Positions 2,076 to 28,917 of a DNA stretch of 64,000 nucleotides are shown here, piece by piece. Made by a program: the position numbers and the translations under genes. How positions within the stretch are numbered: the first letter of the stretch is position 1; every line of letters begins with the position of its first letter. The DNA is from an uncultured Chloroflexota bacterium (GTDB taxonomy: Bacteria > Chloroflexota > Dehalococcoidia > Lucifugimonadales > CAJXCD01): the NCBI GenBank assembly GCA_913051545.1, contig CAJXCD010000006.1, positions 3,680-67,679 on the forward strand. The letters are read 5' to 3'. The notes under the pieces are model-generated. The model did not search any database. It was given only the letters and a program-made list of their open reading frames with translations, and was not told the DNA's origin.

Positions 2076-2102
2076 GTGAAGGTTCCTTAAACAGTTGTAA
2101 CT

Positions 2103-2969: not shown

Positions 2970-3062
2970 AGTATTTGCTATGGATACAGGTGATCCGCAA
3001 ACTGAAAAATTGTGTACTGTAAAGAGGAATACATTCTATATAACTATTCACTTAGTTGTCGA

Positions 3063-3854: not shown

Positions 3855-3881
3855 ATATGGAGTGAGTATTTAGCTGTGCTT

Positions 3882-6997: not shown

Positions 6998-7987
6998 CTA
7001 CAAATTTGTGGGATACCCTCCTTTAATGAGGGATTCTTGACAAGCCTTTAATACTGTTAATACTTTGAGTCCTTCCTCTCCGTTGGTTATCGGATTTTCT
7101 CTTGTTCTTATGCAGTTTAAGAAATGAAGATTCTCGGTGACTAGTGGTTCATTCTTAGCGAGAGATACGCTATATCGCTGGGGCTTGTTAGTAACAAAAT
7201 TACCATCAATAAAATTTATTTCACGGTCAAATAACCCCAATTTGTCGACTGGTTGAGAGTCATCGAAAACAGCCATTTTATGCTCTCCAACTACTACAAG
7301 TTTTTGTTCCTTATATGGGTGGAGCCAACTGACGAATATATGTGAACGTGTTCCATCATCGAATTCCATACTGGATAGACTTACATCTGCTATAGATGGC
7401 TGGAGATATGCTCCTCCTGTGGCGGATACACGTTTCGGTAGCTTACCTTTCAGATGCAGGGTAATAGATATGTCATGTGGGGCAAAGCTCCATAAGGCAT
7501 TTTCTTCTCTACGAACTTTCCCCATGTTGAGTCGAGTTGAATACATATACTGGAGCTTGCCGAGTTCTCCGTTATCTACTAGTTCTTTCAACTTTATTAT
7601 CGCTGGATGGAATCTCATTAAATGCCCTACCATAAGAGTTGTATTTTGTCGTTGTGATAGATTAATTAATTCAGTCGCTTGTATAGGTTCGAGTGCCATA
7701 GGTTTTTCTACCAAAACATGTTTTCCGGATATAAGTGCTTTTTTGGCGAGATCATAGTGTGTTTCGGCTGGAGTAGATATGACTACTGCATCGATCGTAT
7801 CGTTTGATAGTATATCTGAGTAAGATGTTGTGGTTTTTACATCTGGAAATTTTTCTTGAAGCGAACCTATCCTAGAAGTATCAGTGTCACATAGTGTAAT
7901 TGCACAACCCAATTCGTGCATTACTCTCACGTGGTTTGATCCCCAGTATCCACATCCTGCAATAGCTACAGAAATAGGTGTTTTCAT
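6998..7987 (-). CDS. Gfo/Idh/MocA-family NAD-dependent oxidoreductase, WbpB-like
   Basis: 'MKTPISVAIAGCGYWGSNH' is a Rossmann N-terminus, followed by 'GKHVLVEKPMA'. I chose ATG 7987 rather than the listed 8080 start, because the longer form overlaps the upstream GT and adds a non-Rossmann leader. Confidence 0.85.
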   Translation of the reverse strand: MKTPISVAIAGCGYWGSNHVRVMHELGCAITLCDTDTSRIGSLQEKFPDVKTTTSYSDILSNDTIDAVVISTPAETHYDLAKKALISGKHVLVEKPMALEPIQATELINLSQRQNTTLMVGHLMRFHPAIIKLKELVDNGELGKLQYMYSTRLNMGKVRREENALWSFAPHDISITLHLKGKLPKRVSATGGAYLQPSIADVSLSSMEFDDGTRSHIFVSWLHPYKEQKLVVVGEHKMAVFDDSQPVDKLGLFDREINFIDGNFVTNKPQRYSVSLAKNEPLVTENLHFLNCIRTRENPITNGEEGLKVLTVLKACQESLIKGGYPTNL

Positions 7988-8057
7988 ATGAATATCCAGC
8001 TGTTTATTAGTCGCATATTTAGTGTTGGGTATTCTGGAAATTTTTTGATTGGTATTT

Positions 8058-9242
8058 TCATGAATGGTTGCTAGGTTCATATAGCTCTAGAAATCTTTTT
8101 GCTATTGAGGACCAGTGAAATTCGGCAACTGCTAAATCTCTTGAGGATTTACCCATGGCATTACGAAGTTGAGTGTTGTTTGCAATTTCCAAGATAGCAG
8201 TTTTCAATGAATTTACATCGCCAACTGTGACTCTATACCCATTTTTATTGGACGTAAGAAATCCAGTATATATATCATTGGATTTTACGATTAGTGGAAG
8301 ACCGGAAGCTATTGCCTCTATTGTAGATATAGTTATTGCTGCTGGCCAAACACCGATATCTGACGCTGCATAGTGCTGCAACAGTTCTTTTTTTGATATG
8401 TATTCCCCGTTTATTCTAGTTATGTCTTGTATATTTAGTTCACGTGCTAAATCGATCAAGGATTTTATGTAGGATTGATCACCGCCGCCTGTTATTAGAA
8501 TTTGAAGATTGTCATTTTCATGACGTGCCATCTCTACCGCTCTAAGGAGATCTTGAAGCCTTTTTTCAGGAATAATACCGCCTACATGTAGAATAATTAT
8601 ATGATCTGAATTGTTATATCCTAGGGATTTGCGAGCATTTGTACGGTGTTTATGATTGAGTTCGAAATATTTAGCAGATGCTCCTAATCTAACTATCCTA
8701 ACGTTGTTTCCATTAACACTCAAATTTTCTTCTAGCATCGTCGCTTCGTTTTCTCCCACAGCAACTAGGTGGTCACTCTGAGAGACTATTATCTTTCCAC
8801 AAGTACGATTAAAAACCGAGTATATCAATCTTCTCCAAAATGATCCCCTAGTGTCAGTATTTAAATACGAAGTGTGGGAGCAATAAATTAACCTGTATTT
8901 GAGGAATGGTTTCATTAGTGCAATGAGCACTGCTGTTAAATCGAACACGACATGACAATGGACCACTCTTGGACGGAATCGAAATAGTATTCGTACAATC
9001 CCTGGCATGAGAATTATTCGGGATCCAAATACCAATGTCCATAGTGACACGTTATCTACTTGGCAGGGGTATTCAGATGACTGCTCGTTCCGGCTTTTTC
9101 TCAAATCAGGGATTCTATTTGATGCGGCAAATAGGGTTTCATGTCCCAAATCATTTTGTGCTTGCGCTAAACCAACATCGTATCCCAGCCATGGTAGATA
9201 GTAATAAGCTACATGTAGTATTCGAAGTGTTCTGTCAGTCAT
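8058..9242 (-). CDS. glycosyltransferase, GT4 family
   Basis: 394 aa. GT-B C-terminal region reads 'ISTIEAIASGLPLIVKSNDIYTGFLTSNKNGYRV'. Confidence 0.85.
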   Translation of the reverse strand: MTDRTLRILHVAYYYLPWLGYDVGLAQAQNDLGHETLFAASNRIPDLRKSRNEQSSEYPCQVDNVSLWTLVFGSRIILMPGIVRILFRFRPRVVHCHVVFDLTAVLIALMKPFLKYRLIYCSHTSYLNTDTRGSFWRRLIYSVFNRTCGKIIVSQSDHLVAVGENEATMLEENLSVNGNNVRIVRLGASAKYFELNHKHRTNARKSLGYNNSDHIIILHVGGIIPEKRLQDLLRAVEMARHENDNLQILITGGGDQSYIKSLIDLARELNIQDITRINGEYISKKELLQHYAASDIGVWPAAITISTIEAIASGLPLIVKSNDIYTGFLTSNKNGYRVTVGDVNSLKTAILEIANNTQLRNAMGKSSRDLAVAEFHWSSIAKRFLELYEPSNHS

Positions 9243-9278
9243 TTTGTGTTGTCAAAATTGTTGAAGCCTAGTGTTTAT

Positions 9279-10460
9279 CTAGTGAATTAAATTATCGTAA
9301 AGTGAGAGTAATTTTTTTTCTTCGACTTCCCATTTACAGACATTTTTAGCCAAGAGTTCGGCGTTTCCTTGATATTTCTTATATTCACTTTTATCTGCTA
9401 AGATCCCACTTATCGTCGTTCCAATCTCTTTCTCGTCTCTTGGATTTATAAGTTTCCCTACCGGTCCGATATCATTTCCCATCACAACTCTTCGAATCTC
9501 AGGAAAATTGCTTGATACTTGTGGTATTCCTGCCATGATTGCCTCAAACATTTTCGTAGGGGCAGAATAATAATAGCTTGATCCTGCATTCTCTATAGGG
9601 ATGATCGCAATATCAGCTGACGATAACCAATTAGCCACATCATCTGCGGGCACTGGACCATATGAATGGATTCGTTTTTCTAGTGACAATATTCCCGCCT
9701 CGTAGAGTATAGGTTCGAGGTATATAAAATCTTGTTGCCCTACCATTACAAAGTGTGTGTTTTCTGGCCAATAAGTCATACTGGGAACGACTTTGTCTAT
9801 CCCGCTAAATTCACCGACATGGCCGGTGAAACATATTATTGGGCTACTTTTGTCAATGCTCAGCGGTTTCCTTAGGTCTTTATTTCTTTTCGTGGTATCA
9901 ACGTATACTGGACAGTTGTATATGTAATCTATAGGTCCATTGAAACTATGTGTTTGTCTAAATATTTTAGCCCTGGATTCCCCATCTGACATAATTACTC
10001 TATCAACTATCTTCAAGAGCATTCCTTCGTAAAACTTTATGATCATGTTTTTATACTGCGAATTACCTGGCAGTGCAGTAGCCAGTTCGTGAGAGTCGTA
10101 TATAAGTTTAGCCCCTAGTAATTTAGCTGCGATAGCTGCTGGCAATAGTGTTACAGGGTGGTGTGCATGAAAAATGCTGGCTTTGCTGCGGATAGCATAG
10201 ATAAGAAGCTTCAAAATAAATTCCGCAACTTTTATTCCGAGAAGCCATCTTGTTCTAATTCGTCTTGACAACACATTTATTCTTCGAACTTGAAATCCGA
10301 ATGGTTTTTCTTCTCTTTCTGTTATATGGGGTTCGTATAAGGCTAACAGTAGTAATTCAAAACCATTTTTCGAGAGAGATCTCGCTTCTCTCAAAATTCG
10401 TGAATCATATTGGAAGCTATTTTCTACAAGCATACAGATGTCGTAATGGGGATCACCCAT
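9279..10460 (-). CDS. glycosyltransferase, GT4 family
   Basis: 393 aa. Contains 'PTKMFEAIMAGIPQVSSNFPEIRRVV', and the N-terminal half is GT4-like. Confidence 0.8.
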   Translation of the reverse strand: MGDPHYDICMLVENSFQYDSRILREARSLSKNGFELLLLALYEPHITEREEKPFGFQVRRINVLSRRIRTRWLLGIKVAEFILKLLIYAIRSKASIFHAHHPVTLLPAAIAAKLLGAKLIYDSHELATALPGNSQYKNMIIKFYEGMLLKIVDRVIMSDGESRAKIFRQTHSFNGPIDYIYNCPVYVDTTKRNKDLRKPLSIDKSSPIICFTGHVGEFSGIDKVVPSMTYWPENTHFVMVGQQDFIYLEPILYEAGILSLEKRIHSYGPVPADDVANWLSSADIAIIPIENAGSSYYYSAPTKMFEAIMAGIPQVSSNFPEIRRVVMGNDIGPVGKLINPRDEKEIGTTISGILADKSEYKKYQGNAELLAKNVCKWEVEEKKLLSLYDNLIH

Positions 10461-10461
10461 T

Positions 10462-12042
10462 TCAAAAGTTTCCTAACGAACGGGATTTTTGTTGATTTAA
10501 TTTGGAATATCTTGCAGCCGCTGCACATAGTCCAAGTAGCAAACAAGTAATTGTCATTCTACGCATGTCAAATAATGATATGGCTGTTATTGACCCAGCC
10601 AAGTTAATTATTAACACGCCCAGAGTTGAATGCCCAAAAATCGAAATCTCTAGAATAGGAGAGCGTATTGTATAAGTCGCTAGTCTAAATGCAGTAACCC
10701 AAAAAGCTATGTAAAGACCAATTCCAAGTAATCCGTTCCTTAATAGGATTAAGATCCATTCACTGTCTGCTACTCTTTCACCTAGTACTCTAATGTGTTC
10801 AGCTGATGTACCTTCTGAAGGTCCATCACCGAGAATTGGAGACCGTTTCAGTTGGATGGGTATAAGACTGATATTATCTAGTCTTGTCTGAACAGAAGAA
10901 TCGATTTGCCAGTCTATAGCCGCATTCAATCTCGAGACACGTTTCTCAATTATAGGACCGACTAGAGGTAATGATGATCCTGATAAAAAAATCAATGATA
11001 GCGACGATATTATAACCAATGAAATTATAATGCCTCGTTTTATCAAATCACCTCGGACTTTTTTTGGAATTAGCCCCCACCTTGGTATCAACAAAATAGT
11101 TACATAGTATATAGCTAGTGCAATAGTTCCTAACATAGCTGTACGAGAACCAGTAGATACAATTCCCAATAGTAGTAGCAAAATTAATCCTGGTTGAACT
11201 ATTAGTTGAATACCTCTGATTTTCCTTCTTGCTGCTAGTCCTAGAGCAACTGATAATCCGGTAGCAAGTAGAAGGCCATATTCGTTCGGATTAAGTACAG
11301 TACTGGCTGCTCTTGTTTGCAGTATAGAAAAGTGTTTTTCCATTGCTGCGCCAGTAGCAATACGAGGAGCTGCGTAATAGGAGCTACCAAACAGTTGAAA
11401 ATCCCAGAGGTTTAGGGACTGTGCGAAGCCAAACAATGCTGAAATTGCAATTGTTGCAACAAATATCTTGGATATAAAATGCAAACCATTTTTTTTGATA
11501 ATGGCTTGTGATCCAAGATAAAAGGCACATATGTAAAGGCCAAATTTGACCATTTCGAACCAGTCTCCTTTTGACAACGGTATTTGCAAAACAATGCTTC
11601 CGTATGCCATAGAAAGGAGAGTTAGTGGGATCAAAGCAATAAGTACAAAATAGAATTTCCTTCCCGGGATTATCAGCCGTTTCCCATGCCCTAAGATAGC
11701 ACGTAATATAAACATTCCGCCTATAATTAGAATCAAGATATCGTACAGGGTTGTCACAGGAAGTCTGATAGGAAAGGAATCAGACAACTGGATAGCAGGA
11801 GCAAGAATAAGTAGCGGTATCGCTATTATAATTGTACGTATAGAATTTAGACCTGATAAAGTTATCCACAAGGTAGTAGCTGTAATGATTGATACAAGTA
11901 GAACCACGAACTGCACGTCATTCGCTAGATTAGCTCCTACCCAATATATAAATACAGTGAGAAGTCCACCTACTAGTATTGTAGACAGTGTTTTGATTCC
12001 AGCTGATGAAGTTTTATCTATTGGATGAGAGTACATTTTCAT
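10462..12042 (-). CDS. O-antigen polymerase/ligase-like integral membrane protein (Wzy_C-type)
   Basis: 526 aa with at least 10 hydrophobic helices. The 'GIVSTGSRTAMLGTIALAIYY' segment resembles the Wzy_C/O-antigen-ligase signature. Confidence 0.75.
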   Translation of the reverse strand: MKMYSHPIDKTSSAGIKTLSTILVGGLLTVFIYWVGANLANDVQFVVLLVSIITATTLWITLSGLNSIRTIIIAIPLLILAPAIQLSDSFPIRLPVTTLYDILILIIGGMFILRAILGHGKRLIIPGRKFYFVLIALIPLTLLSMAYGSIVLQIPLSKGDWFEMVKFGLYICAFYLGSQAIIKKNGLHFISKIFVATIAISALFGFAQSLNLWDFQLFGSSYYAAPRIATGAAMEKHFSILQTRAASTVLNPNEYGLLLATGLSVALGLAARRKIRGIQLIVQPGLILLLLLGIVSTGSRTAMLGTIALAIYYVTILLIPRWGLIPKKVRGDLIKRGIIISLVIISSLSLIFLSGSSLPLVGPIIEKRVSRLNAAIDWQIDSSVQTRLDNISLIPIQLKRSPILGDGPSEGTSAEHIRVLGERVADSEWILILLRNGLLGIGLYIAFWVTAFRLATYTIRSPILEISIFGHSTLGVLIINLAGSITAISLFDMRRMTITCLLLGLCAAAARYSKLNQQKSRSLGNF

Positions 12043-16776: not shown

Positions 16777-18552
16777 TCACCAAAAATTTAAGTACTGTGC
16801 GAATCCGTTGACACTATGTTTTCTTCTGTACTTTTGTATTTCGGATTCAAGGTCAATGGCTTTAGTTTTTTGAATAATAGATTCGAAGTATTTCGAATCT
16901 CTTCTGGCAAAAATATAAAATTGTTTATCGGATTCGGGATTATTTATATCTCTCACCAAATGATATTCCTCAAATCTTTTATCTAGCATTAGCAAGTATG
17001 ATGTGAGGCCAGTGCCTATTTCATAGGGAGGTATGGAATTCAAGTGCATATACGGCGCCACATATTCCTGAATTTCTCCTTGGTCAGGAATGTATTTGCC
17101 GTCAATTGCTGAGAACTTTATAGAGTGTGTGATTATGATATCAGGATTGGCTTCATATATGACGTTGGAGTTCCATCCACTGTAGGCTATTTTTTCAGAT
17201 GCAAGTCCATAGAAATCTATGTGACGATATCCCGTTATGTAGGGTAGTGCACCTGCTTCCCCAGTGGCTAAAACTACGTTCTGAGGATTATCATCTAAAT
17301 TGTTTATGGAATTTGCTATAGCTGGGTTTATGACACGATTAGAGAAGTAATTCTCCAAGCCAACAATTTGCTCATATCTATGGCCCGTATCTACAGACCA
17401 TATCAATACTAATATAAGAATGCTCACGTGTACCCATTTCCCTATAGTAGTTTTGTAGTTACTAAAATTAGATACATATTGAGGTTGTCGATTAATTATT
17501 AGACGTATGTATTCACATACCACAAGTAAAAATGCAGGAAGAAATGGTAAAAGGAACCGATCTGCGATGCCGACAGTTGGTCGTACGGTGGTAAAATAAA
17601 TCAACTGAATCAGTACTGCAATTAGTACAGCGAGATAGATGGGTCTAATTTTAATTTTTAAGGCCCACATCGTTACTATCAGTGCAATCCCTCCCATGAT
17701 TGATCTTGATACGAATTGCAACACGTACGAGAGTCCATTAGAGGTCCACCAAGTTGTAAGGTCAGTCCCCTGTTTAAACATAAAAGGTGTTGGTACTATG
17801 TGACCGAAATACAGAGATTTTGCCGTCCAATAGGTTACTGATGGGATTACTGTCGCAATAAGAGCGTGTAAACAAATATTCATCCATCGGTCTCTGTTTA
17901 CCACAAGATATCCCATAAACAACGCTCCGGAGAATACCAACGATTCCGGCCTAACCATAAATGTCACAGTTATAGAGCCTAAATACAAATATTCTAGCTT
18001 GTAGTTTCTATTCGCTATAATACTCAGCGTGGCCTGAGTTGTTACAAAGAGCATGTAGAAAGACGTCTCCATGCCCGCTATAGCGTGCACAAATATGTAG
18101 GGATGTGTCGATATCGCGATAATGGCAAAAAATGATACCAAGGGACTATCTTTTGGATTCCCTTGCCAGAAGAGTATGCCCATAGTGAATAAGCTTGAGA
18201 ATATTCCAAGACACTTCGCTGCATCTAATGTTTCAAGACCAAGGAAATTTAATAGAGCAAGTGATATAACCCAAAGGAAGGAAGTAAAACCTTCAAGGGG
18301 GCTTTCGTCAGTGGAATTCCATCTTATTCCGTTTCCATCAGAAAGATTGTCTGCGAACCGAAAGCTGATATATGAATCATCTAGTGTCCAGTCCCAGTGA
18401 AATAAGGACAAGGTTAAGAAATTTGTAACGACTAAAATTACTCCAAATATCTGCCAGACCATACTTTTTTTGGTAGTCCGAGAAATAATGGACAAGGTAT
18501 TTTGTATTAAAGGGTTGTTCATAGGTATTTGGTTAGAAATTTTGAATGTCAT
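16777..18552 (-). CDS. GT-C-fold-like polytopic membrane glycosyltransferase (ArnT/PMT-like)
   Basis: 591 aa. About 11-13 hydrophobic helices occupy the first ~390 aa. 'DDSYISFRFADNL' follows TM1 (acidic first-loop motif). The C-terminal ~200 aa are soluble. Confidence 0.55.
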   Translation of the reverse strand: MTFKISNQIPMNNPLIQNTLSIISRTTKKSMVWQIFGVILVVTNFLTLSLFHWDWTLDDSYISFRFADNLSDGNGIRWNSTDESPLEGFTSFLWVISLALLNFLGLETLDAAKCLGIFSSLFTMGILFWQGNPKDSPLVSFFAIIAISTHPYIFVHAIAGMETSFYMLFVTTQATLSIIANRNYKLEYLYLGSITVTFMVRPESLVFSGALFMGYLVVNRDRWMNICLHALIATVIPSVTYWTAKSLYFGHIVPTPFMFKQGTDLTTWWTSNGLSYVLQFVSRSIMGGIALIVTMWALKIKIRPIYLAVLIAVLIQLIYFTTVRPTVGIADRFLLPFLPAFLLVVCEYIRLIINRQPQYVSNFSNYKTTIGKWVHVSILILVLIWSVDTGHRYEQIVGLENYFSNRVINPAIANSINNLDDNPQNVVLATGEAGALPYITGYRHIDFYGLASEKIAYSGWNSNVIYEANPDIIITHSIKFSAIDGKYIPDQGEIQEYVAPYMHLNSIPPYEIGTGLTSYLLMLDKRFEEYHLVRDINNPESDKQFYIFARRDSKYFESIIQKTKAIDLESEIQKYRRKHSVNGFAQYLNFW

Positions 18553-19459
18553 TAGTATCTACCCTATTCAGCATAAACGGATTTGATTTAGGCGAATTCC
18601 ATCCGGGGATTGTAGTGACTGCTGTGCTGAATCCAGCCTCCTGAACGTATTTAGGGGTAGAATTACTAAGAGAAGGAGCTTTCCCATAAGGATAGCAGAA
18701 GGGAAGTGGGTCTGATTTAGATAAATTAGTACGTAAGGATTCGTAACATGTTGACAGATCGAGACGTTGTTCTGTTGGTTCAAGATCGGAAAATGCTATA
18801 TGTTTGTGAGAGTGTCCGCCGACTGACATACCGTGATTAGTTAGTTCTTTTAGTTTATCCCAACCCATGTAAAGATTGTCAGAAAATGACTCTTCACGAC
18901 CAAACACCTCGTTAAAGAGTATGCCTAGTATTTGTTCCCTTACATCAATTGGAAGGCCATAGTTCATGTGATATTTATACATTCCTATTTCAGGTTCATC
19001 CCACTTATACACTTGTTTAACTATGTCCATGTCAGGTTGCAATTCTAGATTAGGGGCAACTTCCTTTAATACTTGTGAGAAACGGGTATATAGATCATTA
19101 AATTTTAGTTCGGCCATTAGGAAATGGTTCTTGTGCACGGAGGCTACCAAACGAGAGTTTATACAAGATGTGATCGTGTAGAAGGCAGCAGATATTTTTT
19201 TCTCCATTAGAATCGGTAGCACATTTTCATAATGATCGATTAAACCATCGTCGAATGTTAGATAACACAGATTTTTTTCCGGAAAATACTTGCCTGATAA
19301 GAATGAAATGATACTGTCGTGCGATGCCATCTCAAACTTAGATTGTAGTAGCTCGACTTGCTTATTGAAATTATCTGTGAGAATACCTTTGATACGTGGG
19401 AAGTCTGTTTGTGGGAAATCTCTCACATAATGGTAAGTAACAAGTATGAGTTGGTTCAT
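18533..19459 (-). CDS. polysaccharide deacetylase (NodB homology / CE4)
   Basis: 308 aa. Contains 'LTFDDGLIDHYENVLPIL', 'SAAFY' and 'GGHSHKH'. Confidence 0.85.
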   Translation of the reverse strand: MNQLILVTYHYVRDFPQTDFPRIKGILTDNFNKQVELLQSKFEMASHDSIISFLSGKYFPEKNLCYLTFDDGLIDHYENVLPILMEKKISAAFYTITSCINSRLVASVHKNHFLMAELKFNDLYTRFSQVLKEVAPNLELQPDMDIVKQVYKWDEPEIGMYKYHMNYGLPIDVREQILGILFNEVFGREESFSDNLYMGWDKLKELTNHGMSVGGHSHKHIAFSDLEPTEQRLDLSTCYESLRTNLSKSDPLPFCYPYGKAPSLSNSTPKYVQEAGFSTAVTTIPGWNSPKSNPFMLNRVDTNDIQNF

Positions 19460-19474
19460 AAATCTATTGCCTAT

Positions 19475-20626
19475 TTAATTAGGACGGTCCTGATCACTGT
19501 CGGATTTAGTGATATAAAAGTTGTCTCTATGATTTAATTTCCCAGTGTGTTCCCGCAAGTCGGTCGATATCCAAAAAGCGCCTAATAGTTTGGATGTGTC
19601 ACTGTCTAGAGGTTGGAATTTTATTGGGAATGGTGGATCGTTATGGGCAGAGCTATTGATTTTAAACCCAATTCGGGTTAGTGGCTTGGCAAATCTTTTA
19701 GAAGTACAAAAATAATCTGCAAATGCTATTCCATTATCCAGCCCATATCTCGTTATGTTTTCGGTCAGGATTTCTTCAGACTCTGGAGAACTCATAAATT
19801 CCAATACGCGAAGTATTTTCTCCTCACGATTCATAACCTGTTCGATTCTGTATACGGCTAGACCGAGCACATTATTAGAAGATTTTTCTCGTGCCACTGC
19901 AAATTCATATTTAAAGGATGGATGTTCAGCGTATCGCCAATTTAAATAACTAGAATCTCTAGCTGGTCCGATAGTTATAGGAGCAATTTTATTGAACCAG
20001 AATTCATCCCAATCTGAGCTGAAACGGTTACTCTCTAATGATAACTTGATATTTGTGTGTTTCGTATAACTTGATTCCTTAGCTAACGAATCGAGTCTGG
20101 GAATCTGAGCAGACATCGTTTCATGAGTAGAATCGGTTATCAAATTTCGAGTATCTTTATAATTTAGTACTTGCACCCACCTTGGGACTTCAGGTAACAT
20201 TTCAAATCCGAACGCATGGTATATATTTTGTGCTGTTTGGTTTAGACCGATGGCGAAAATCGCCTCAAATCCCATATTTCTGGTAGCCCACAATAGTCGC
20301 ATTCCTGCACCAGTATTTCGTGCTTCAGGGGTCACGAACCATTGAGATAGCCAACAACCAGGAAATATTTCTCCTGACACATTTAGATTGAATGGGATTA
20401 GGCCGAGCATTCCAACAATATTTCTATTTACTGATGCTAATAAGATTGTTGGCCCATTGGAATTCCATTGGGGTAACCTGTGTGTATCGTACTGCCACAG
20501 TAGCAGATTCCCATCTCTTGACAGTATGTGGCGGGTGTTCCAATAATCATCAATGAATTTTTGGAGGTGTGGAATGTCAGCACGGGTACATTGGTCGATG
20601 GAAATTTGTGTATTCAATGTTGACAT
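19475..20626 (-). CDS. GNAT-family acyltransferase with C-terminal extension
   Basis: 383 aa. 'VTPEARNTGAGMRLLWATRNMGFEAIFAIGLNQTAQNIYHAFGFE' is a GNAT motif A region. The extra ~200 aa C-terminal domain is unassigned. Confidence 0.7.
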   Translation of the reverse strand: MSTLNTQISIDQCTRADIPHLQKFIDDYWNTRHILSRDGNLLLWQYDTHRLPQWNSNGPTILLASVNRNIVGMLGLIPFNLNVSGEIFPGCWLSQWFVTPEARNTGAGMRLLWATRNMGFEAIFAIGLNQTAQNIYHAFGFEMLPEVPRWVQVLNYKDTRNLITDSTHETMSAQIPRLDSLAKESSYTKHTNIKLSLESNRFSSDWDEFWFNKIAPITIGPARDSSYLNWRYAEHPSFKYEFAVAREKSSNNVLGLAVYRIEQVMNREEKILRVLEFMSSPESEEILTENITRYGLDNGIAFADYFCTSKRFAKPLTRIGFKINSSAHNDPPFPIKFQPLDSDTSKLLGAFWISTDLREHTGKLNHRDNFYITKSDSDQDRPN

Positions 20627-20654
20627 GTATGTTTTAGAATTAGCGATTAACTAG

Positions 20655-22001
20655 TCAGTTGATGATTTTTCGCAGTTTCTTAAAACGGTTTCCGTGTTGA
20701 ATATCTTTAGACAAAGAAACCTTCACAGGTATTTTGTACCGTGGAAGTCGGGCAGTGCAGTAGGACTTTAACCGTTTACTGAACCCAGGCAAATCTTCAG
20801 GTGATACGAGCCTAACTGTAGCACAAACTATATTACCCATTATCGCGTTTTGTTCACCATATACTGTTACTTCTGCTATGTTGTCTAGTTCTTGGATAAT
20901 GTTTTCTACCTCCGCAGGAAATACTTTCTCTCCACCAACATTTATAATGTCCGATTTCCTACCGAGGAATTTCATGTATTCACCATCTACCTCCACGATA
21001 TCTCCAGTATCAAGCCATCCATCTTTGGTGAATGGGTTGGGAGAATTCAAATACCCCAACATGGCTGATTCTGCTTTAACTTGCAAGATGCCATCAATAA
21101 CACGAGTTTTAAATCCTTCGCCTCCAATCTTTACCCATAGTGAATTGGAGCTTTTTGATTTTGATCTTAAAACTCCTAATTCAGTCATACCGTAAGTTTG
21201 TAGCAGCCGTATTTTCGGGAACAGTTCATGAAGTTTGGTAAGGGTGCTTTGAGGCATAGGTTCTGTTCCATAGGTGATAGTCTTCAGGGATGAAATGTTG
21301 TATCGATTATAAGCTTCACTTAAAAGCATTAAGTTTATGAACGTGGGAGTTGTTGGTAGCAAATCTACGTTGTGTTTTTCTATTGCATTCAGAACAACAT
21401 CAGGGGTGCGATCAATAGGTGTAACTATACATCCGCAATTTGAGAGTTGATATAGCATTGTATTAATTCCACCCAAGTGATCGTATAGCAAGAAAGTTAT
21501 CGCACGCTGTCTTTGACGTCTAATTTGGAATTTCTTTAGTAAACTGTACAAATCTTGAACAATAGCTTTACTTTCTCCGGTAGAACCCGAGGAAAAAACT
21601 ACTACTCCGGGGTGATTTAGTTTCCGCAATTTCTGATAAATATTGTGGTTGACTGACCGACATAATTTCTCCAATGTCACATTGTCTGAGTCATCTATTT
21701 TAAAGATTATTTCCACCTGAGATGTATTAATAAACTCAGTCTTTTTAGGCCCTGTGGAGGGTGTCAGAGGTACTAGGATACAGCGAGATTGTGTAAGAGC
21801 TAGGAAAAGAGCTATAGAATTTGGGGAAAAGTCCGCTTCTAGCGCGACTATTGTACCCTTGGGAATTTTTTGAACCTCAATCACTGACTGCCAGTGATTG
21901 AGGCGATCAATTAGCCAGCCGTATGTATATGATTGGTCGTTCCATATTACGGCTTCTGTGTCGCAGTTTTCTTCAAATCGTTTCAGCAAGAAATCAATCA
22001 T
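20655..22001 (-). CDS. AMP-dependent synthetase/ligase (adenylate-forming acyl-ACP/CoA ligase)
   Basis: 448 aa. Contains 'VVFSSGSTGESKAIV', 'YGMTELG' and 'GWLDTGDIVEVDGEYMKFLGRKSDIINVGGEKVFPAEVE'. Confidence 0.9.
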   Translation of the reverse strand: MIDFLLKRFEENCDTEAVIWNDQSYTYGWLIDRLNHWQSVIEVQKIPKGTIVALEADFSPNSIALFLALTQSRCILVPLTPSTGPKKTEFINTSQVEIIFKIDDSDNVTLEKLCRSVNHNIYQKLRKLNHPGVVVFSSGSTGESKAIVQDLYSLLKKFQIRRQRQRAITFLLYDHLGGINTMLYQLSNCGCIVTPIDRTPDVVLNAIEKHNVDLLPTTPTFINLMLLSEAYNRYNISSLKTITYGTEPMPQSTLTKLHELFPKIRLLQTYGMTELGVLRSKSKSSNSLWVKIGGEGFKTRVIDGILQVKAESAMLGYLNSPNPFTKDGWLDTGDIVEVDGEYMKFLGRKSDIINVGGEKVFPAEVENIIQELDNIAEVTVYGEQNAIMGNIVCATVRLVSPEDLPGFSKRLKSYCTARLPRYKIPVKVSLSKDIQHGNRFKKLRKIIN

Positions 22002-22720
22002 TATCCAAAAACGCCCCCGAGGTATACGACCTGTCCTGTTACCATCTCGCTTTCTGGTTTAATAAAAAAATTAATTAAGTTGGTTACATCAGAGAAATCA
22101 CCGTATCGTTTTATAGCATGACGTTTTAGGAAGTCGTCCAATTTTTGTTTAGGGACAGATCGTATTAAATCGGTTTTAATTGCAGGTGGCCCTACTGCAT
22201 TTACAGTAATTTTGAATTCAGCTAATTCCTTGGAAAGTATTTGAGTGAGTTGCACAATTGCCGCTTTTGACGAGGCATATGCTGCCTCTCCTTCAAGTTT
22301 TAGAGGAACTGCTCCGGTCGCAAAATTTATGATCCGTCCATAGTTTACGTAACGCATTAATTTTGCAGATTCTCTACTTACTAGAAAAGTTCCAACAACG
22401 TTGGTTTCGAAGATATTGCGTACGGTATCAATAGGTGTGAGAATACTGTGGTTCATTGAAGCTACTCCGGCATTGTTAATTGTTATGTCTAACTTCCCAT
22501 AATCTCTACGAATTTCTGTAAACATTGCGCGGACAGCTTTTTCATCAAATACATCTAGAATAAAATGACGGTAGTTTGCAGAATAGAAGTCAGTTTTACT
22601 CCGGCTACATCCTATTACATGTAGTCCTTGATCAACATAGTATTCAGCGAGGTGTCTACCGATACCTTTGCTGGTGCCGGTTATTATCATTACTTTGGTG
22701 TCAGTCTTTTTCATTTTCAA
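22001..22720 (-). CDS. short-chain dehydrogenase/reductase (FabG-like)
   Basis: 239 aa. Contains 'ITGTSKGIGR', 'NNAG' and 'YASSKAA'. There is a TAATG overlap with the ligase gene. Confidence 0.9.
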   Translation of the reverse strand: MKMKKTDTKVMIITGTSKGIGRHLAEYYVDQGLHVIGCSRSKTDFYSANYRHFILDVFDEKAVRAMFTEIRRDYGKLDITINNAGVASMNHSILTPIDTVRNIFETNVVGTFLVSRESAKLMRYVNYGRIINFATGAVPLKLEGEAAYASSKAAIVQLTQILSKELAEFKITVNAVGPPAIKTDLIRSVPKQKLDDFLKRHAIKRYGDFSDVTNLINFFIKPESEMVTGQVVYLGGVFG

Positions 22721-23009
22721 TCACAAGAACCGATATATATTCACTTAGGTTGCGTATAGTTGTGAATGGGCTTTTAGTCTGGGACATTGCTCTCTCATCT
22801 GCAATTGTTATGGATATTCCCAATTGATCCTGTATTTTTTCTTCTGCCCTAACGATTAAACTGACTAGACCTAGTGAGTCCAATTTGCCAGATTGTCCAA
22901 ATAGTGGTGATTCTAACTGGACGTCTATGTGTTGGTCGAAGGGGAGTTCCTCATTTAGTTCTTTTATGACCTCAAATAGTATCTGTTCTATTTGATCTTT
23001 GTTAGGCAT
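22701..23009 (-). CDS. acyl carrier protein
   Basis: 102 aa, acidic, with the 'GKLDSLGLVSLIV' phosphopantetheine-attachment (DSL) motif. Confidence 0.85.
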   Translation of the reverse strand: MPNKDQIEQILFEVIKELNEELPFDQHIDVQLESPLFGQSGKLDSLGLVSLIVRAEEKIQDQLGISITIADERAMSQTKSPFTTIRNLSEYISVLVIENEKD

Positions 23010-23048: not shown

Positions 23049-23774
23049 TTAAGTTTGGCTAGTTTGATATAGAAGCATTTCTACAAGGCTAATATCGTTT
23101 TCGTTATCGATGTTCACAGATCTAGTACTTGGCATGATATATGGTCTTATGAAATCTCCGAACAGGCTGTCATTATTCATTATGACGTTCCGTTTAGTGA
23201 TATAAATCGCTCCGTTTCGTAAGTATGCTTTTGGCCTGAGGTCCTGTCGTCGACCTTCCCATTTTTGTGTCGGCTCACCAAGGTATGGTAAAAGTCTGCC
23301 TTTAGCTATTCGCTTTACAAGTCTTGGATGATGAGATGGTATTTCTTCAACACTTATGATTGAGTCACAATTAATATCACTTGTTAGTTTCAGTGCCTGT
23401 ATTATGTCCTCTTTGTTACGTAGAGGTGTAGTCGGTTGAAGCAATAGTACCCAGTCTATTTGAGTTCCGTCCTGATTTTCCACGAAAGAAACAGCATGCT
23501 GTACTAGCGGTAGGGTAGGGGCTTCGTCAGAGGCTAAGCTTATTGGCCTTCGGAAAGGAACTTCAGCACCTAATTTAACCGATACATCTGCAATTTCTTC
23601 GTCATCTGTACTTACTATTATTCGGTAGATATAATCTGAAAGTTCTAGTGCAGGTTCAATAGTATATGCAATTAGAGGCTTACCACAAACATTACGCAGA
23701 TTTTTTCTAGGAACACCTTTTGATCCTCCACGCGCAGGAATAATTGCTAATACTTTCTGATTATTTTTTCCCAT
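23049..23774 (-). CDS. acylneuraminate (CMP-nonulosonate) cytidylyltransferase, NeuA family
   Basis: 241 aa. Contains 'LAIIPARGGSKGVPRKNLRNVCGKPLIAYTI'. Confidence 0.9.
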   Translation of the reverse strand: MGKNNQKVLAIIPARGGSKGVPRKNLRNVCGKPLIAYTIEPALELSDYIYRIIVSTDDEEIADVSVKLGAEVPFRRPISLASDEAPTLPLVQHAVSFVENQDGTQIDWVLLLQPTTPLRNKEDIIQALKLTSDINCDSIISVEEIPSHHPRLVKRIAKGRLLPYLGEPTQKWEGRRQDLRPKAYLRNGAIYITKRNVIMNNDSLFGDFIRPYIMPSTRSVNIDNENDISLVEMLLYQTSQT

Positions 23775-24926
23775 TCAGTATGTTATACGTTTTTCTATGG
23801 TTAAAGGGATAGTTGCCAACAAGTCAGCGATGTGCTGTCCGGCATTCCCTTCGCCGTATAGGTTGCTCGACGGTAAACTGTTTTTGTTTATTTGATTTCG
23901 TGTCGCGGATACTATTGACTTTTTGTTATACGTAGCATCTGTCAAATTTGGACCTCTGTCTCTGCCAGTTTGCCGACTTCCTATATTTACCACAGGTAAG
24001 CCTAGGAAGGAACACTCTCTCACTCCCGCACTGGAGTTTCCGATAAGACACATGGAATTGACTAAAGTTCGGAGAAAATCTTCAGGGGTCATATTTTTGA
24101 AAAAATATACAAAAGGGATTTCATTAGTTTCCCTAAACTGCCGAATCCCTTTAGAAATTAAATCTGACCCTGCATCGACATTTGGCCAGAACCAGAGAGT
24201 AGGTAATGCCAATTCTTTGACAGCATTTAATGTGGCTCTGATCTGTGTTAGCGAGTCCTCGTATTCAGTGGTTACAGGATGTTGTAAGACTATGATGTAC
24301 CCTGAGGCGAGATCAACTATATTACCGACGCCGCCATACCTGGAAAATATATCGAATTGGGGTTTAGATTCGATACTTATTCGTTTGGCGAGGTCTATTG
24401 AAGGACACCCTGTGACAAAAATTCTGTCAGGGATTTCACCCATTTGTTTGACTCTTTGCGCGGCAATGTCGTTTGCCACAAAATGAACATCAGAGAGCTT
24501 TGTTACTGCGTGTCTAACTTTTTCATCAATTGACCCGCTAACTTCACCACCTTGTATGTGTGCGACTGGTATATTCATGTATGAAGCTGCTATAGCAGTG
24601 GCTATCGTTTCATATCTGTCTGCTACACTTACTACTACATCAGGCTTCAATTTATCGAATGTGGTGGCGAGCTCTGTAACAGCTATTCCGGTTGACTTGG
24701 CCGCTGCTACAGGATTTTCTCCTTCGAGCACGACGTATACCTCAGCATCGGGATCAAATCCGTCAGATTTAATCACGTCTATTACAGGTCCGTAACGTTC
24801 TAGTAGGGCTGATGCTCCAACCACAAATTGCAGAATTAACTCGTCGTGGTCTCGCACCGCTTCCAGTAGGGTTTTAATCCTAGCATAGCTAGGGCGTGCA
24901 GTTACGACGACACATACTTTACGCAT
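23775..24926 (-). CDS. neuC: UDP-N-acetylglucosamine 2-epimerase, hydrolysing (NeuC/LegG type)
   Basis: 383 aa. 'IPVAHIQGGEVSGSIDEKVRHAVTKLSDVHFV' matches the hydrolysing subclass rather than the WecB type. It directly abuts the NeuA gene. Confidence 0.85.
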   Translation of the reverse strand: MRKVCVVVTARPSYARIKTLLEAVRDHDELILQFVVGASALLERYGPVIDVIKSDGFDPDAEVYVVLEGENPVAAAKSTGIAVTELATTFDKLKPDVVVSVADRYETIATAIAASYMNIPVAHIQGGEVSGSIDEKVRHAVTKLSDVHFVANDIAAQRVKQMGEIPDRIFVTGCPSIDLAKRISIESKPQFDIFSRYGGVGNIVDLASGYIIVLQHPVTTEYEDSLTQIRATLNAVKELALPTLWFWPNVDAGSDLISKGIRQFRETNEIPFVYFFKNMTPEDFLRTLVNSMCLIGNSSAGVRECSFLGLPVVNIGSRQTGRDRGPNLTDATYNKKSIVSATRNQINKNSLPSSNLYGEGNAGQHIADLLATIPLTIEKRITY

Positions 24927-24943: not shown

Positions 24944-25912
24944 TTAATTATTTTTTATCTCCGACAGATATTTACCTAATTTTTTGGCCATGAATAATTC
25001 TGTCTTAGCCATAGACTCATGCGTCGCCCCTGCTATGTGCGGTGTGATTATCAGGTTTTCATACTTTCTTGCATACTCCAATAAAGGATTTATATTTAAT
25101 TTAGTAATTAAGCGTTCATCGGATAATACATCTAAAGCTGCACCAGACAATTTGCCAGATTCTAAAGCAGAAAGCAGGGCTTGTTCGTCAATTAGTTGAC
25201 CACGGGAAGTATTGATTAGCACTGATCCGTCTCTCATTTGCCCTATTTGCTTTGCCCGTATCATATTTTTGGTATCGTTATTTAGGGGTACGTGTAGGGT
25301 AACTACGTCACCATATTGTAATAGATCATCTAAACACTCAGCTCTATCTACCGAGCTGTGCCAATGAGAGTTATGAGAATCAAATGCCATCACATCCATA
25401 TTAAAAGCTAGGCCGTAATTAGCTATCTTTCTTCCAACTCTCCCTAGTCCTACTATACCTAATTTAGCACCGTCCAAATCATGGCCTTTATAATCATCTC
25501 TGTTCCACTGACCATCTTGGACTGATGTGAACGCCGACGGTATTTTGCGTTGTAGAGCAAGTATGAGAGCCCATGTATGTTCCGCTGATGCGCTGACGGT
25601 GTCCATGAACTTGGCCTCTCCCTGGAGGCTTAGTATTTGGATACCTTTACTATCAGCGTATTCCTTATCTATATGATCTAAGCCTGTAGTGGCTGAGACT
25701 ATAGCTACGAGGTTAGTAGCGGCATCGATAACATTCTTGTCAATTTCATACGACAGCCTAACAATTAATACATGGTATTTGCCAATTTGTTTCAAGAGCT
25801 GCGCACGGGTTAGTTCAAGTTCATCTACATGCCCGAATTTTTTTAACTCATCCAGAGCATTTTTTGAATAACCAATAGGTTCAATGTTAATAATGTTAAA
25901 GTTTGAATCCAT
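24944..25912 (-). CDS. D-isomer-specific 2-hydroxyacid dehydrogenase family protein
   Basis: 322 aa. Contains 'GIVGLGRVGRKIA', 'NTSRGQLIDE' and 'TPHIAG'. Confidence 0.85.
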   Translation of the reverse strand: MDSNFNIINIEPIGYSKNALDELKKFGHVDELELTRAQLLKQIGKYHVLIVRLSYEIDKNVIDAATNLVAIVSATTGLDHIDKEYADSKGIQILSLQGEAKFMDTVSASAEHTWALILALQRKIPSAFTSVQDGQWNRDDYKGHDLDGAKLGIVGLGRVGRKIANYGLAFNMDVMAFDSHNSHWHSSVDRAECLDDLLQYGDVVTLHVPLNNDTKNMIRAKQIGQMRDGSVLINTSRGQLIDEQALLSALESGKLSGAALDVLSDERLITKLNINPLLEYARKYENLIITPHIAGATHESMAKTELFMAKKLGKYLSEIKNN

Positions 25913-26975: not shown

Positions 26976-28031
26976 CTAGTCCATTGGTGCTAAATCGGTT
27001 TCAGACAGGAACGAATCTATCGATATGTCTCGAACTAGTGTACGTCCGATAATCTTGTGTAAATTTGAAGCTGGAATACCAATTCCCGGTTTTTTAAGAG
27101 ATAAATGTTTTTCTTCTAGTAAAGTTCCAGACTTAAGGTCATTCCGCGCGACAATACTCTTTGTAAAAGTTCTACGCAATTCACTAAGTTCATTAGCTTT
27201 CAAATCTTTGTTTACTGGATGTTCTGTCACAGTTTCTATGTACCTGACTCCATCTACAAGTTGTCGGAGTTCCTGGGTTGTTATTGATGACGGTATGTCA
27301 GGACCAAAAAGATGTCTACTCAAAGTGACATGTACCTCAAGCACGTCAATTCCAATAGTAGCTGCACTTAGTCCGGCATACACTTTCCCTGAATGATCGG
27401 ATAGCCCCACGGCACAATTATACCTACTGCGGTATTCAGATATCACGTTCAACCCAATTTCTTCTGGCACACTTGGGTATGCAGAGGTGCATTGTAGAAT
27501 TGCTAAACCAACGCCACTTGCTTTTATGAGATTAACAGAAGCATCTATCTCTTCAAAAGTACTCATTCCAGTTGAAAGGATAATCGGTATCCCCGTTTCT
27601 GACATAATTTTTAGCATAGGAAGGTTGTTTGTTTCTCCAGAACCAACTTTCCATGCAGCAACTCCAACTTTTGTTAATAAGTCAACTGCTTCGATTGAAA
27701 ATGGGGTACTCATAAAGGCGATGTCACGATCCTCAGCATGGCTTTTCAGTCCGTGCCATTGATCCAGTGTAAATTCCATCCGTTTCCAATACTCATATCT
27801 AGTGTCGTCCTGTTTACTGAATTTAACGCGCCAAGGTTCTGAGGGCGTACTTTCAGCGCTTGCTATATGGGTTTGGAATTTCACAGCATCAGCACCTGCG
27901 TCAGCTATTGCGTCGATAAAAGCATGAGCTAGTCCCAGGCTACCATCATGATTTTGTCCGACTTCTCCTATAATGAAGCATGGGTTACCAATTTTGAACG
28001 GGATATTTACTGTTTGATCTTGAGTGGACAT
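26976..28031 (-). CDS. NeuB-family nonulosonic acid synthase (module 1), with C-terminal SAF-like extension
   Basis: 'PCFIIGEVGQNHDGSLGLAHAFIDAIADAGADAVKFQTH'. I prefer ATG 28031, which has GGTGA 5 nt upstream, over the listed 28055. Confidence 0.9.
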   Translation of the reverse strand: MSTQDQTVNIPFKIGNPCFIIGEVGQNHDGSLGLAHAFIDAIADAGADAVKFQTHIASAESTPSEPWRVKFSKQDDTRYEYWKRMEFTLDQWHGLKSHAEDRDIAFMSTPFSIEAVDLLTKVGVAAWKVGSGETNNLPMLKIMSETGIPIILSTGMSTFEEIDASVNLIKASGVGLAILQCTSAYPSVPEEIGLNVISEYRSRYNCAVGLSDHSGKVYAGLSAATIGIDVLEVHVTLSRHLFGPDIPSSITTQELRQLVDGVRYIETVTEHPVNKDLKANELSELRRTFTKSIVARNDLKSGTLLEEKHLSLKKPGIGIPASNLHKIIGRTLVRDISIDSFLSETDLAPMD

Positions 28032-28041
28032 ATAATCACCA

Positions 28042-28917
28042 TCAAATTTTACCAATATATTTTCTAGGGTGCATTACAGTAGCAATCGAACTGGTTATTG
28101 GTCGTAGCTTTGGTTTACGATAGCCTAGTCTCATAAGCCCCTTGCTAAGTATACGTCTGTTCAAACGTCTGTTGAGACCATTAGTAGATAATTTCCAAGT
28201 CGAATCATATATAGAGTATCCAGATGCTATTTTGCCAGAAAGTTCACGATTCCTTTTAATTTCAGGTCCATTCCATATCCAATCAGTGCCCCCTGGAACT
28301 GATTCCCACCCGTGGTTCTGGTGAAACACTTTTGATACTTCAGTGGCGTCTATAGTTGGTACTCCCTTCGACAGAGCACCGTATATTAGCCACTCATCCC
28401 AGCAACCTCTACCGATTGCGAATGGTGGTATAGATGGCCATGTACCTTTAGTGAAAGCAAAGTAATCCATACCTTGGCGCAAATCACTTTCTAAGGATTG
28501 TATTTTGTATATTTCTTTCCAGGTGGTCTGGTTACTGAAATCAAATTCAGTATCTATATTAATACCCCATGATAGGCCTACCATAAGGAAAGGTTGTTTT
28601 TTAATTGATTTCAAGGCAAGTATGAAATCTTTAGTGAGTATTATATCTGCGTTTACGTAAACAATAATGTTATTAGATGCTGAGATCTCAGCAGATTCAA
28701 ATAAAGAATTTACCAAAGGGGTTCCATGCTCATTACATAGTACGTCAGGAACATGCTTGACCCCAAAGTCTGCGGCACATTGAGATGTACCCTTATCATC
28801 ACCGATTAATATCACCTCTACATCTGGATCTAGATTTACCCAACTTGATATTGCATTTCGTTGGATAACTTCGAATTTGTTTACGAAAGGCCTAGGAGTA
28901 GTAAATATAGTGATCAT
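28042..28917 (-). CDS. putative GT-A-like glycosyltransferase of an uncharacterised family
   Basis: 'MITIFTTPRPF..IQRNAISSW ... VILIGDDKG ... YVNADIILTKDF'. I chose ATG 28917, which sits 1 nt after the upstream TGA, instead of the overlapping 29019 start. Confidence 0.45.
   Translation of the reverse strand: MITIFTTPRPFVNKFEVIQRNAISSWVNLDPDVEVILIGDDKGTSQCAADFGVKHVPDVLCNEHGTPLVNSLFESAEISASNNIIVYVNADIILTKDFILALKSIKKQPFLMVGLSWGINIDTEFDFSNQTTWKEIYKIQSLESDLRQGMDYFAFTKGTWPSIPPFAIGRGCWDEWLIYGALSKGVPTIDATEVSKVFHQNHGWESVPGGTDWIWNGPEIKRNRELSGKIASGYSIYDSTWKLSTNGLNRRLNRRILSKGLMRLGYRKPKLRPITSSIATVMHPRKYIGKI

Follow-up and report, generated by a model that had tools for sequence, protein, structure and literature searches.

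A putative ACP-dependent N-acyl exchange cassette with a tandem-GNAT transferase in a nonulosonate gene cluster of an uncultured Chloroflexota bacterium

In the synthesis of lipid A (LpxC/LpxD) and of Nod factors (NodB/NodA/NodF), GlcNAc is de-N-acetylated and the freed amine is N-acylated from an acylated acyl carrier protein (acyl-ACP); NodB is the founding enzyme of carbohydrate esterase family 4 (CE4). A gene cassette that appears to follow the same logic is located in a 64,000-nucleotide (nt) stretch of genomic DNA of an uncultured Chloroflexota bacterium (Dehalococcoidia; Lucifugimonadales; CAJXCD01), which corresponds to positions 3,680–67,679 of contig CAJXCD010000006.1 (assembly GCA_913051545.1) and is referred to below as the window. 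The five genes of the cassette encode an ACP, a FabG-like short-chain dehydrogenase/reductase (SDR), an adenylate-forming ligase, a GNAT-domain protein of 383 amino acids (aa), designated here as GNATx, and a CE4 deacetylase. The cassette differs from the Lpx and Nod systems in the transferase, which is a predicted tandem GNAT, whereas LpxD is a left-handed β-helix (LbH) protein and NodA represents its own family; the acyl group is probably of C3–C4 size and not a fatty acid, and the acceptor is probably an intermediate of a nonulosonate pathway.

The evidence presented below makes it rather probable that the five genes constitute one unit, which exchanges the N-acyl group of the operon's amino sugar by ACP-dependent re-acylation. 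The sugar is most probably a nonulosonic (sialic-acid-like) acid produced by NeuC, NeuB and NeuA, or a precursor of it; the specific acyl group and the acceptor are proposed with lower confidence. An original prediction, made from the sequence of the window, had put forward CE4 de-N-acetylation, the assembly of an unusual acyl group on ACP and its GNAT transfer to a sugar amine, and this proposal is supported by the synteny, the protein fusions, the motifs and fold of the CE4 protein, and the NeuA, NeuB and NeuC genes. The system, known here from sequences and models, is real, coherent and widely distributed.

Comparable gene sets have been annotated in pathogens. The group II flagellin glycosylation islands of Aeromonas contain uncharacterised genes annotated as ACP, 3-oxoacyl-ACP reductase, AMP synthetase, luxE and luxC (PMC7874193), and the O1-specific genes of Yersinia ruckeri include uncharacterised ones annotated as PP-binding protein, AMP synthetase, 3-oxoacyl-ACP reductase and polysaccharide deacetylase (PMC5552943). 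The tetronate genes VC0248–VC0252 of Vibrio cholerae O1 include that of the ligase-like WbeL, which is needed genetically for normal O1 antigen and predicted to act in tetronate synthesis (PMC3441752), and the flagellin locus of Campylobacter jejuni contains a gene with an FkbH domain. Compared by annotation only, the Aeromonas, Y. ruckeri and V. cholerae sets resemble the window in combining ACP and ligase genes (and a reductase gene in some) in loci of N-acylated amino sugars or nonulosonates, but their partner transferases differ (LuxE/LuxC, LbH), and none was reported with a tandem GNAT.

The predicted tandem-GNAT transferase and its deacetylase partner

The original prediction described a GNAT with an extra part, and the PF00583 match (28.8 bits; cut-off 20.7) is indeed limited to residues 47–144 of GNATx; no Pfam model matches the remaining ~240 residues, and NCBIfam has no model that matches any part of the protein. 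The pantetheine loop R103-N-T-G-A-G108 is present, R103 being invariant in the family alignment, and the C-terminus KSDSDQDRPN is invariant in an alignment of 16 GNATx homologues. VIA-align comparisons of the AlphaFold 2 (AF2) model (pLDDT 86.6) revealed similarity to Eis-like proteins (PDB codes 2OZG, 2HV2, 9MVA, 3N7Z and 3SXN; Z 19.7–20.9, rmsd 3.1–3.9, 290–304 residues) and to N-myristoyltransferase (NMT; Z 18.5–19.7), both matches spanning residues 7–382, while FemA and FemX folds reached only Z ~11. By its modelled structure, GNATx is an Eis/NMT-like tandem GNAT, which is not covered end to end by any curated family. The likeness to Eis and NMT (PDB codes 3SXN, 9MVA, 3N7Z, 2P6E and 8FBT; Z 18.5–20.9) extends over the whole chain, which ends at the same structural position, but the sequence identity is 9–14%, the donor of GNATx would be acyl-ACP and not acyl-CoA, and its acceptor would be a sugar instead of an aminoglycoside or peptide. 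For both Eis and NMT, a catalytic role as general base has been proposed for the C-terminal carboxylate; nearly all of the 150 best GNATx family members end at the last position of the profile, a pattern compatible with this mechanism, and the C-terminal carboxylate of GNATx is possibly a catalytic base as well.

The GNATx family is of moderate size: out of 1.84 billion, 448 representative clusters fall within E ≤ 1e-30 and 2174 within E ≤ 1e-10. Some members are fused to carrier domains: P0268 and P0272 (ACP-GNATx, ~450 aa) combine PP-binding and GNATx, P0232 (599 aa) contains an unknown domain, ACP and GNATx, and P0243 (1068 aa) contains FkbH_N, HAD, PP-binding and GNATx. These predicted fusion proteins are the strongest link between carrier and transferase, and, because of them and of the synteny of GNATx with ACP genes, acyl-ACP can be argued to be the donor; if so, GNATx would work like the Eis and NMT enzymes and yet stand outside their family by its substrate. 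A plasmid search with GNATx found only 25%-identical matches, in Escherichia albertii and Sinorhizobium, the context in E. albertii being uninformative. Searches of the literature found no paper on the tandem-GNAT (GNATx) family and no biochemical study of a GNATx/CE4 pair.

The loci containing GNATx were collected by a genome scan with the C-terminal motif, 90 being confirmed and 80 kept; they were searched by tblastn and with small hidden Markov models (HMMs) built from seeds confirmed with Pfam or NCBIfam, and those of at least 12 kb (n = 65) are referred to as long. The 80 loci represent about ten phyla (Acidobacteriota, Verrucomicrobiota, Planctomycetota, Chloroflexota, Gemmatimonadota, Pseudomonadota, Bacillota with Psychrobacillus, Binatota, Bacteroidota and a phylum of the candidate phyla radiation, CPR). 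An ACP gene is nearby in 68 of them and lies directly upstream of GNATx in 57; 66 have a CE4 gene no more than 4.5 kb away, and in 55 it immediately follows GNATx. The gene order shared by ACP, GNATx and CE4 in the majority of the 80 loci, across many phyla, indicates that their grouping is not due to chance. An FkbH-type loader is encoded in 48/80 loci and an AMP-ligase loader (>400 aa) in 9/80, never both together (0/80), with the identities of the FkbH and ligase loaders confirmed by Pfam and NCBIfam; judging from these gene contents, the two kinds of loader are interchangeable and mutually exclusive. A MaoC dehydratase, often fused to an SDR, is present in 44/80 loci. Among the long loci, at least two of NeuA, NeuB and NeuC occur in 44/65, a 2-hydroxyacid dehydrogenase in 36/65 and a homologue of the 417-aa protein encoded close to the cassette (Table 1) in 32/65. 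In the locus of a cultured Firmicute, Psychrobacillus sp. NPDC096623 (L018, positions 7592–11981), genes for an FkbH-like HAD protein, an ACP, a glyoxalase-fold protein, GNATx and CE4 are consecutive; no Neu genes were found within 10 kb of them. This strain might be usable as an experimental model.

The NodB-type deacetylase that had been predicted was readily recognised: PF01522 matches the CE4 protein with 69.1 bits (cut-off 23.1) in two stretches (2–103 and 198–278) that flank an insert. The motifs TFDD (68–71), H216, H220 and Y256-P257 are kept across 67 homologues; T68-F69-D70-D71, H216 and H220, which align to PplD, are invariant or nearly so in the sets of 67 and 14 homologues, and the Asp-His-His metal triad and the catalytic Asp are intact. 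The AF2 model (pLDDT 93) represents a deformed (β/α) barrel with an extra helical insert of ~95 residues, for which a Foldseek search found PplD (E 6e-14, TM(target) 0.79) and IcaB (TM(target) 0.78); the nearest folds are those of PplD, PgaB, IcaB and BpsB, all of which PDB titles or the literature describe as de-N-acetylases. The N-terminus, judged by eye, does not look like a signal peptide, in keeping with a protein that works in the cytoplasm alongside an ACP-dependent enzyme; from its motifs and model, the protein is most likely a cytoplasmic de-N-acetylase. The CE4 gene tracks GNATx, being present in 65/80 GNATx loci versus 1/80 of the metagenomic loci collected by the presence of a ligase homologue (L094–L173; ligase loci below), and this sole ligase locus (L126) also has GNATx. 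That CE4 follows GNATx and not the ligase module is the main argument for the action of GNATx on the amine freed by CE4.

The loader module and the acyl group

The ACP of the window reads 'GKLDSLGL', with the DSL motif noted earlier and a modifiable Ser; this Ser is invariant in all 65 homologous ACPs and the Asp is present in 64 of the 65. One AcpS-type phosphopantetheinyl transferase (PPTase) is encoded in the genome. The SDR, in line with its description as FabG-like, matches adh_short, contains the motifs TGxxxGIG and YxxxK and has FabG 3-oxoacyl-ACP reductases as its top PDB matches (E 7e-34). The motif 'SSGSTGESK' was found in the ligase as expected; every NCBIfam match of this protein is under its cut-off, and in the PDB it is matched best by MenE and FadD13 and less well by DltA, so that it is closest to acyl-activating and not to amino-acid-activating enzymes. 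Membership in the XrtA/PEP-CTERM-associated ligase family (TIGR03098) was rejected (92 bits versus a cut-off of 592). Relatives of the ligase with 60–66% identity number in the thousands across phyla.

The order ACP-SDR-ligase is kept in most of the 80 ligase loci, where SDR homologues with 44–62% identity sit between ACP and ligase. The genes after this trio vary, encoding a small PseH-like GNAT with a DegT aminotransferase, LbH acyltransferases, FabH-like ketosynthases (17/80 loci) or NeuB. Because the order is conserved while the following genes change, the trio is, by its genomic distribution, a separate, abundant and portable module that would supply acyl groups for amino sugars. The hybrid arrangement of the window, in which the trio is joined to GNATx and CE4, was also found in L014 (Longimicrobiales) and L126; in L017 (Alphaproteobacteria), ligase and SDR accompany GNATx and CE4, and the ACP was found only with a custom HMM. 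In a quick maximum-likelihood tree, the GNATx of the window belongs to a 10-row clade without FkbH-type loci (SH-aLRT 99). TIGR01686 finds no FkbH in the genome of the window (92% complete); as a positive control, the same model recovered FkbH from the L020 and L039 genomes.

The ligase also occurs on plasmids. In 36 Bacillus plasmid records, mostly from the B. cereus group, it is 48–51% identical to that of the window; on the B. thuringiensis plasmid NZ_CP074713.1 (L089, positions 7385–10347), a 49%-identical ligase follows a 105-aa ACP, 41% identical to the ACP of the window, and the neighbours of the pair encode an alpha/beta hydrolase and a 362-aa hypothetical protein, with no SDR and no sugar genes. 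This pair, lacking SDR and sugar genes, travels together and does not indicate a substrate. On plasmids of Burkholderia stagnalis (L091) and Bradyrhizobium barranii (L092), genes for a 45%-identical ligase, an SDR and an ACP precede that of a ~2100-aa type I polyketide synthase (PKS), with a PPTase gene near them in L092; each is an uncharacterised PKS primed by a cassette of the mupirocin kind.

The best precedent for the acyl group comes from that kind of cassette. According to PMC10098928 (citing Walker et al. 2020), the MupQ/MupS/MacpD 'priming cassette' of mupirocin converts malonyl-CoA to 3-hydroxypropionyl-ACP. The ligase of the window is 39% identical to a ligase of the thiomarinol plasmid pTML1 (BLASTP, E 2e-102; 437 aligned positions, residues 14–446 of 448), whose gene is followed by SDR, ACP and PKS genes; the pTML1 record carries no gene name, and its identification as TmlQ is based on the order of the genes together with PMC10098928. 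Both the window and the pTML1/mupirocin block contain a short (~445 aa) adenylating enzyme, an SDR and a stand-alone ACP encoded by translationally coupled neighbours, but the order is ACP-SDR-ligase in the window and ligase-SDR-ACP in pTML1, and the product would go to a sugar N-acyltransferase in the former, whereas it goes to a ketosynthase in the latter. By analogy, 3-hydroxypropanoyl is the best precedent for the acyl group of the window, not a conclusion. The original prediction named 3-hydroxybutyrate, glycerate and lactate as candidate acids; instead, the closest studied relative of the ligase points to a 3-hydroxypropionyl unit derived from malonyl-CoA.

FkbH/ACP pairs load glyceryl units in polyketide pathways, e.g., Mad7/Mad8 and Mad14/Mad12 (PMC7489565). 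The 48 FkbH-type GNATx loci share ACP, GNATx and CE4 with the window, but their loader is FkbH with a MaoC-SDR fusion; because the window has a ligase/SDR pair as its loader and its genome lacks FkbH, its acyl group probably differs from a glycerate-derived one. The D-2-hydroxyacid dehydrogenase, separated from the cassette by the NeuC and NeuA-like genes, was found where the original prediction had placed it, but its suggested role as a supplier of the acid is unlikely to be the main one: NeuA is followed by a homologue in 36/65 long loci of both the FkbH and the ligase type, and FkbH-type loci need no free acid. Rather than supplying a free acid, the enzyme seems to belong to the nonulosonate or N-acyl pathway proper. 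The literature searches found nothing relevant on N-3-hydroxypropanoyl sugars and no paper on an ACP with hydroxybutanoyl in O-antigen gene clusters.

The proposed course of the reaction is as follows. The 448-aa ligase would adenylate a small carboxylate and load it as a thioester onto the phosphopantetheine of the 102-aa ACP, and the FabG-like SDR would reduce the bound unit to a short hydroxy-acyl-ACP, which may be 3-hydroxypropanoyl from malonyl-CoA, by analogy with MupQ/MupS/MacpD, or alternatively 3-hydroxybutanoyl or another C3–C4 hydroxy acid. The CE4 enzyme would remove the N-acetyl group of the sugar in the cytoplasm, at the nucleotide-sugar, free-sugar or lipid-linked stage, and GNATx would acylate the freed amine with acyl-ACP as the donor, the C-terminal carboxylate possibly serving as a general base. 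The product would then be CMP-activated and added to the glycan by a downstream transferase.

The acceptor sugar and alternative explanations

The assignment of the sugar leans on the neighbouring nonulosonate genes. NeuB homologues (54–62% identity) and NeuC homologues are each encoded in 46/80 GNATx loci and NeuA homologues in 43/80. Compact operons of Verrucomicrobiota and L014 contain only NeuB/NeuC/NeuA, the dehydrogenase and the cassette, which favours a Neu-type sugar with its single N-acetyl group exchanged. In another bacterium, according to a preprint, de-N-acetylation and re-formylation take place at the CMP-nonulosonate level.

Several observations weigh against the overall interpretation of the cassette. 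The NeuB of the window matches TIGR03569 with 316 bits (cut-off 399) and is below both equivalog cut-offs, so that Neu-type and Leg-type sugars are not distinguishable. Neu genes are absent from the 10-kb surroundings of GNATx in 18 of the 65 long loci, and the GNATx/CE4 pair is thus not restricted to nonulosonates. A DegT aminotransferase is encoded within 10 kb in 24–26 of the 80 loci. In L056 (positions 905–4681) and many similar Bryobacterales loci, the genes of an ABC-2 permease and NeuB are preceded by those of a PglC-like Bac_transf protein, a DegT protein and a PglF-like dehydratase of 640 aa; since such loci contain PglF-, PglE- and PglC-like genes and no PglD-like N-acetyltransferase gene was found near them, GNATx might there acylate a newly made amine, that of the 4-amino sugar. 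The model assigns no role to the conserved dehydrogenase. The match of the ACP to PP-binding (18.2 bits) is just under the Pfam cut-off of 20.8. The SDR is only 25–29% identical to the SDRs of PKS-type cassettes (pTML1: 25%, E 4e-21, no better than to ordinary FabG; Burkholderia: 29%), and the ACP has no significant similarity to that of pTML1 (BLASTP, E 3.9); the two ACPs, with 102 and 111 aa, both exceed the usual length. Strict orthology is therefore unsupported, and the 3-hydroxypropanoyl assignment draws on the ligase alone.

The same chemistry could be directed at another acceptor, namely a HexNAc of a lipid-linked or growing oligosaccharide at the cytoplasmic face (cf. NodB/NodA on chito-oligosaccharides) or another amino sugar of the locus, e.g., of the GlcNAc3NAcA type or pseudaminic-like. 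The polymers or linkage units on which the nearest CE4 folds (PplD, PgaB, IcaB) act, which are not nucleotide sugars, speak for such an acceptor, as do the long loci without Neu genes, but the block lies between or beside NeuB/NeuC/NeuA in 44/65 long loci, the compact operons of Verrucomicrobiota and L014 have no other sugar pathway nearby, and the preprint provides a precedent for exchange at the CMP-nonulosonate level; we consider this alternative unlikely, if worth keeping in mind. Less probable still is that GNATx acylates an amine made by an aminotransferase, taking the role of LegH, PglD or PseH with acyl-ACP as the donor, while CE4 deacetylates elsewhere, e.g., leaving a free amine. The Bryobacterales loci, with PglF-like, DegT and PglC-like genes upstream and no PglD-like gene, would suit such a role, and so would the occurrence of the ACP-SDR-ligase module elsewhere beside DegT and a small GNAT or LbH transferase. 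On the other hand, the adjacency of GNATx and CE4 (55/80) holds where no DegT gene is found within 10 kb, as in the window, L014 and the Verrucomicrobiota loci L039, L052, L058 and L061, and none of the 79 ligase loci with a different transferase contains CE4.

A more distant alternative, which we regard as highly improbable, treats ACP, SDR and ligase as a polyketide or fatty-acid priming set, or as a DltA/DltC-like aminoacyl carrier for a lipid anchor or an aminoacyl decoration, and the proximity of GNATx and CE4 as coincidental. Ligase homologues (38–45% identity by tblastn; pTML1 39% by BLASTP) do precede PKS genes on pTML1 and on the Burkholderia and Bradyrhizobium plasmids, and the 17 ligase loci with FabH-like genes also fit priming, but neither the cassette nor the rest of the operon contains a ketosynthase or PKS gene. 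A weak DltC match of the ACP could hint at an aminoacyl carrier; this candidate was rejected, the ligase being closer to MenE/FadD/MupQ-type enzymes than to DltA and the FemA/FemX folds scoring much lower with GNATx than Eis (Z 11 versus 20). Coincidence is countered by the recurrence of the trio followed by GNATx and CE4 in L126 and L014 and by the presence of an own ACP in almost all GNATx relatives. Exchange of the N-acyl group of a nonulosonate or its precursor remains the preferred interpretation of the cassette.

Layout of the operon and significance

A long glycan operon, encoded entirely on the minus strand, occupies the window from ~9.3 to 37 kb (Table 1). All five open reading frames of the cassette were found at the positions given by the original prediction, tightly packed, but its placement of the cassette 'upstream' of NeuA/NeuC has to be reversed: as all genes are on the minus strand, the cassette is transcriptionally downstream of NeuB/NeuC/NeuA. 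The order of transcription is NeuB with SAF, GME-like SDR, dehydrogenase, NeuC, NeuA-like protein, ACP, SDR, ligase, GNATx, CE4, 591-aa protein and 417-aa protein. In the 5'→3' direction, a 39-nt gap separates NeuA and ACP, ACP and SDR overlap by 20 nt, SDR and ligase share base 22001, gaps of 28 and 15 nt follow the ligase and GNATx genes, respectively, and CE4 overlaps the next gene by 20 nt.

Table 1. Features of the nonulosonate operon and the acylation cassette in the window, in order of transcription.
Feature	Position	Strand	Evidence
NeuB-family nonulosonate synthase with SAF domain	26976..28055	-	NeuB and SAF matches
GME-like SDR	between the NeuB and D-2-hydroxyacid dehydrogenase genes	-	
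D-2-hydroxyacid dehydrogenase, PGDH-like	24944..25912	-	2-Hacid_dh_C match
NeuC-type hydrolysing UDP-HexNAc 2-epimerase	23775..24926	-	TIGR03568 374 bits, above cut-off
NeuA-like CMP-nonulosonate cytidylyltransferase	23049..23774	-	CTP_transf_3; PseF 155 bits, below cut-off
ACP, 102 aa	22701..23009	-	PP-binding 18.2 bits (cut-off 20.8); Ser45 in 'LDSLG'
FabG-like SDR, 239 aa	22001..22720	-	adh_short, adh_short_C2
Adenylate-forming ligase, 448 aa	20655..22001	-	AMP-binding and AMP-binding_C
GNATx, 383 aa	19475..20626	-	GNAT domain, residues 47-144 only
CE4 (NodB-homology) deacetylase, 308 aa	18533..19459	-	PF01522 69 bits
Polytopic membrane protein, 591 aa	16777-18552	-	no Pfam match
Candidate nonulosonate transferase, 417 aa	15453..16706	-	weak C-terminal match to NF046086

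None of the 80 GNATx loci encodes a homologue of the 591-aa membrane protein, the start of whose gene overlaps the CE4 stop, and this protein is thus specific to the operon of this lineage. The C-terminus of the 417-aa protein weakly matches NF046086, the BFO_1060 family, named after Tannerella forsythia transferases of pseudaminic and legionaminic acid (Pse/Leg) derivatives (PMC5420450), and the protein is a candidate transferase for the modified nonulosonate. Genes for an AsnB-type amidotransferase, glycosyltransferases and a Wzy-like protein lie 3' of it. Neither ligase nor GNATx was found in the 40 relatives of the same order that were searched, and the five-gene block is patchy in its distribution and was probably acquired horizontally. 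The link to glycan genes that the original prediction presumed holds for the homologous cassettes elsewhere, which lie in glycan loci, though these 40 relatives have no cassette.

As a tentative generalisation, many uncultured and some cultured bacteria might make 5-amino nonulosonic acids that carry an N5 hydroxy-acyl group (3-hydroxypropanoyl, lactyl or glyceroyl) in place of acetyl; CE4 might act on a cytoplasmic, possibly CMP-linked intermediate, followed by a member of an Eis-like tandem-GNAT family not recognised before, with plug-in loaders (FkbH or a MupQ-like ligase) and a catalytic C-terminal carboxylate. Antigenicity and recognition by phages and the immune system are shaped by the N-acyl groups other than acetyl that sialic-acid-like sugars carry, among them glyceroyl, glycolyl, 3- and 4-hydroxybutyryl and lactyl. 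In 2017, a Tannerella study noted the scarce knowledge of the enzymes that install N-glyceroyl and related groups (PMC5378307). The locus described here, together with the ~450 related protein clusters, offers a set of such candidates: a CE4 de-N-acetylase, a new carrier-fed tandem-GNAT transferase and exchangeable loading modules. The conserved gene content suggests that an uncharacterised route of de-N-acetylation and re-acylation most likely recurs in many phyla; if this is true, N-acyl decorations would be predictable from genomes, and the enzymes may serve for making N-acyl-modified analogues of sialic acid.

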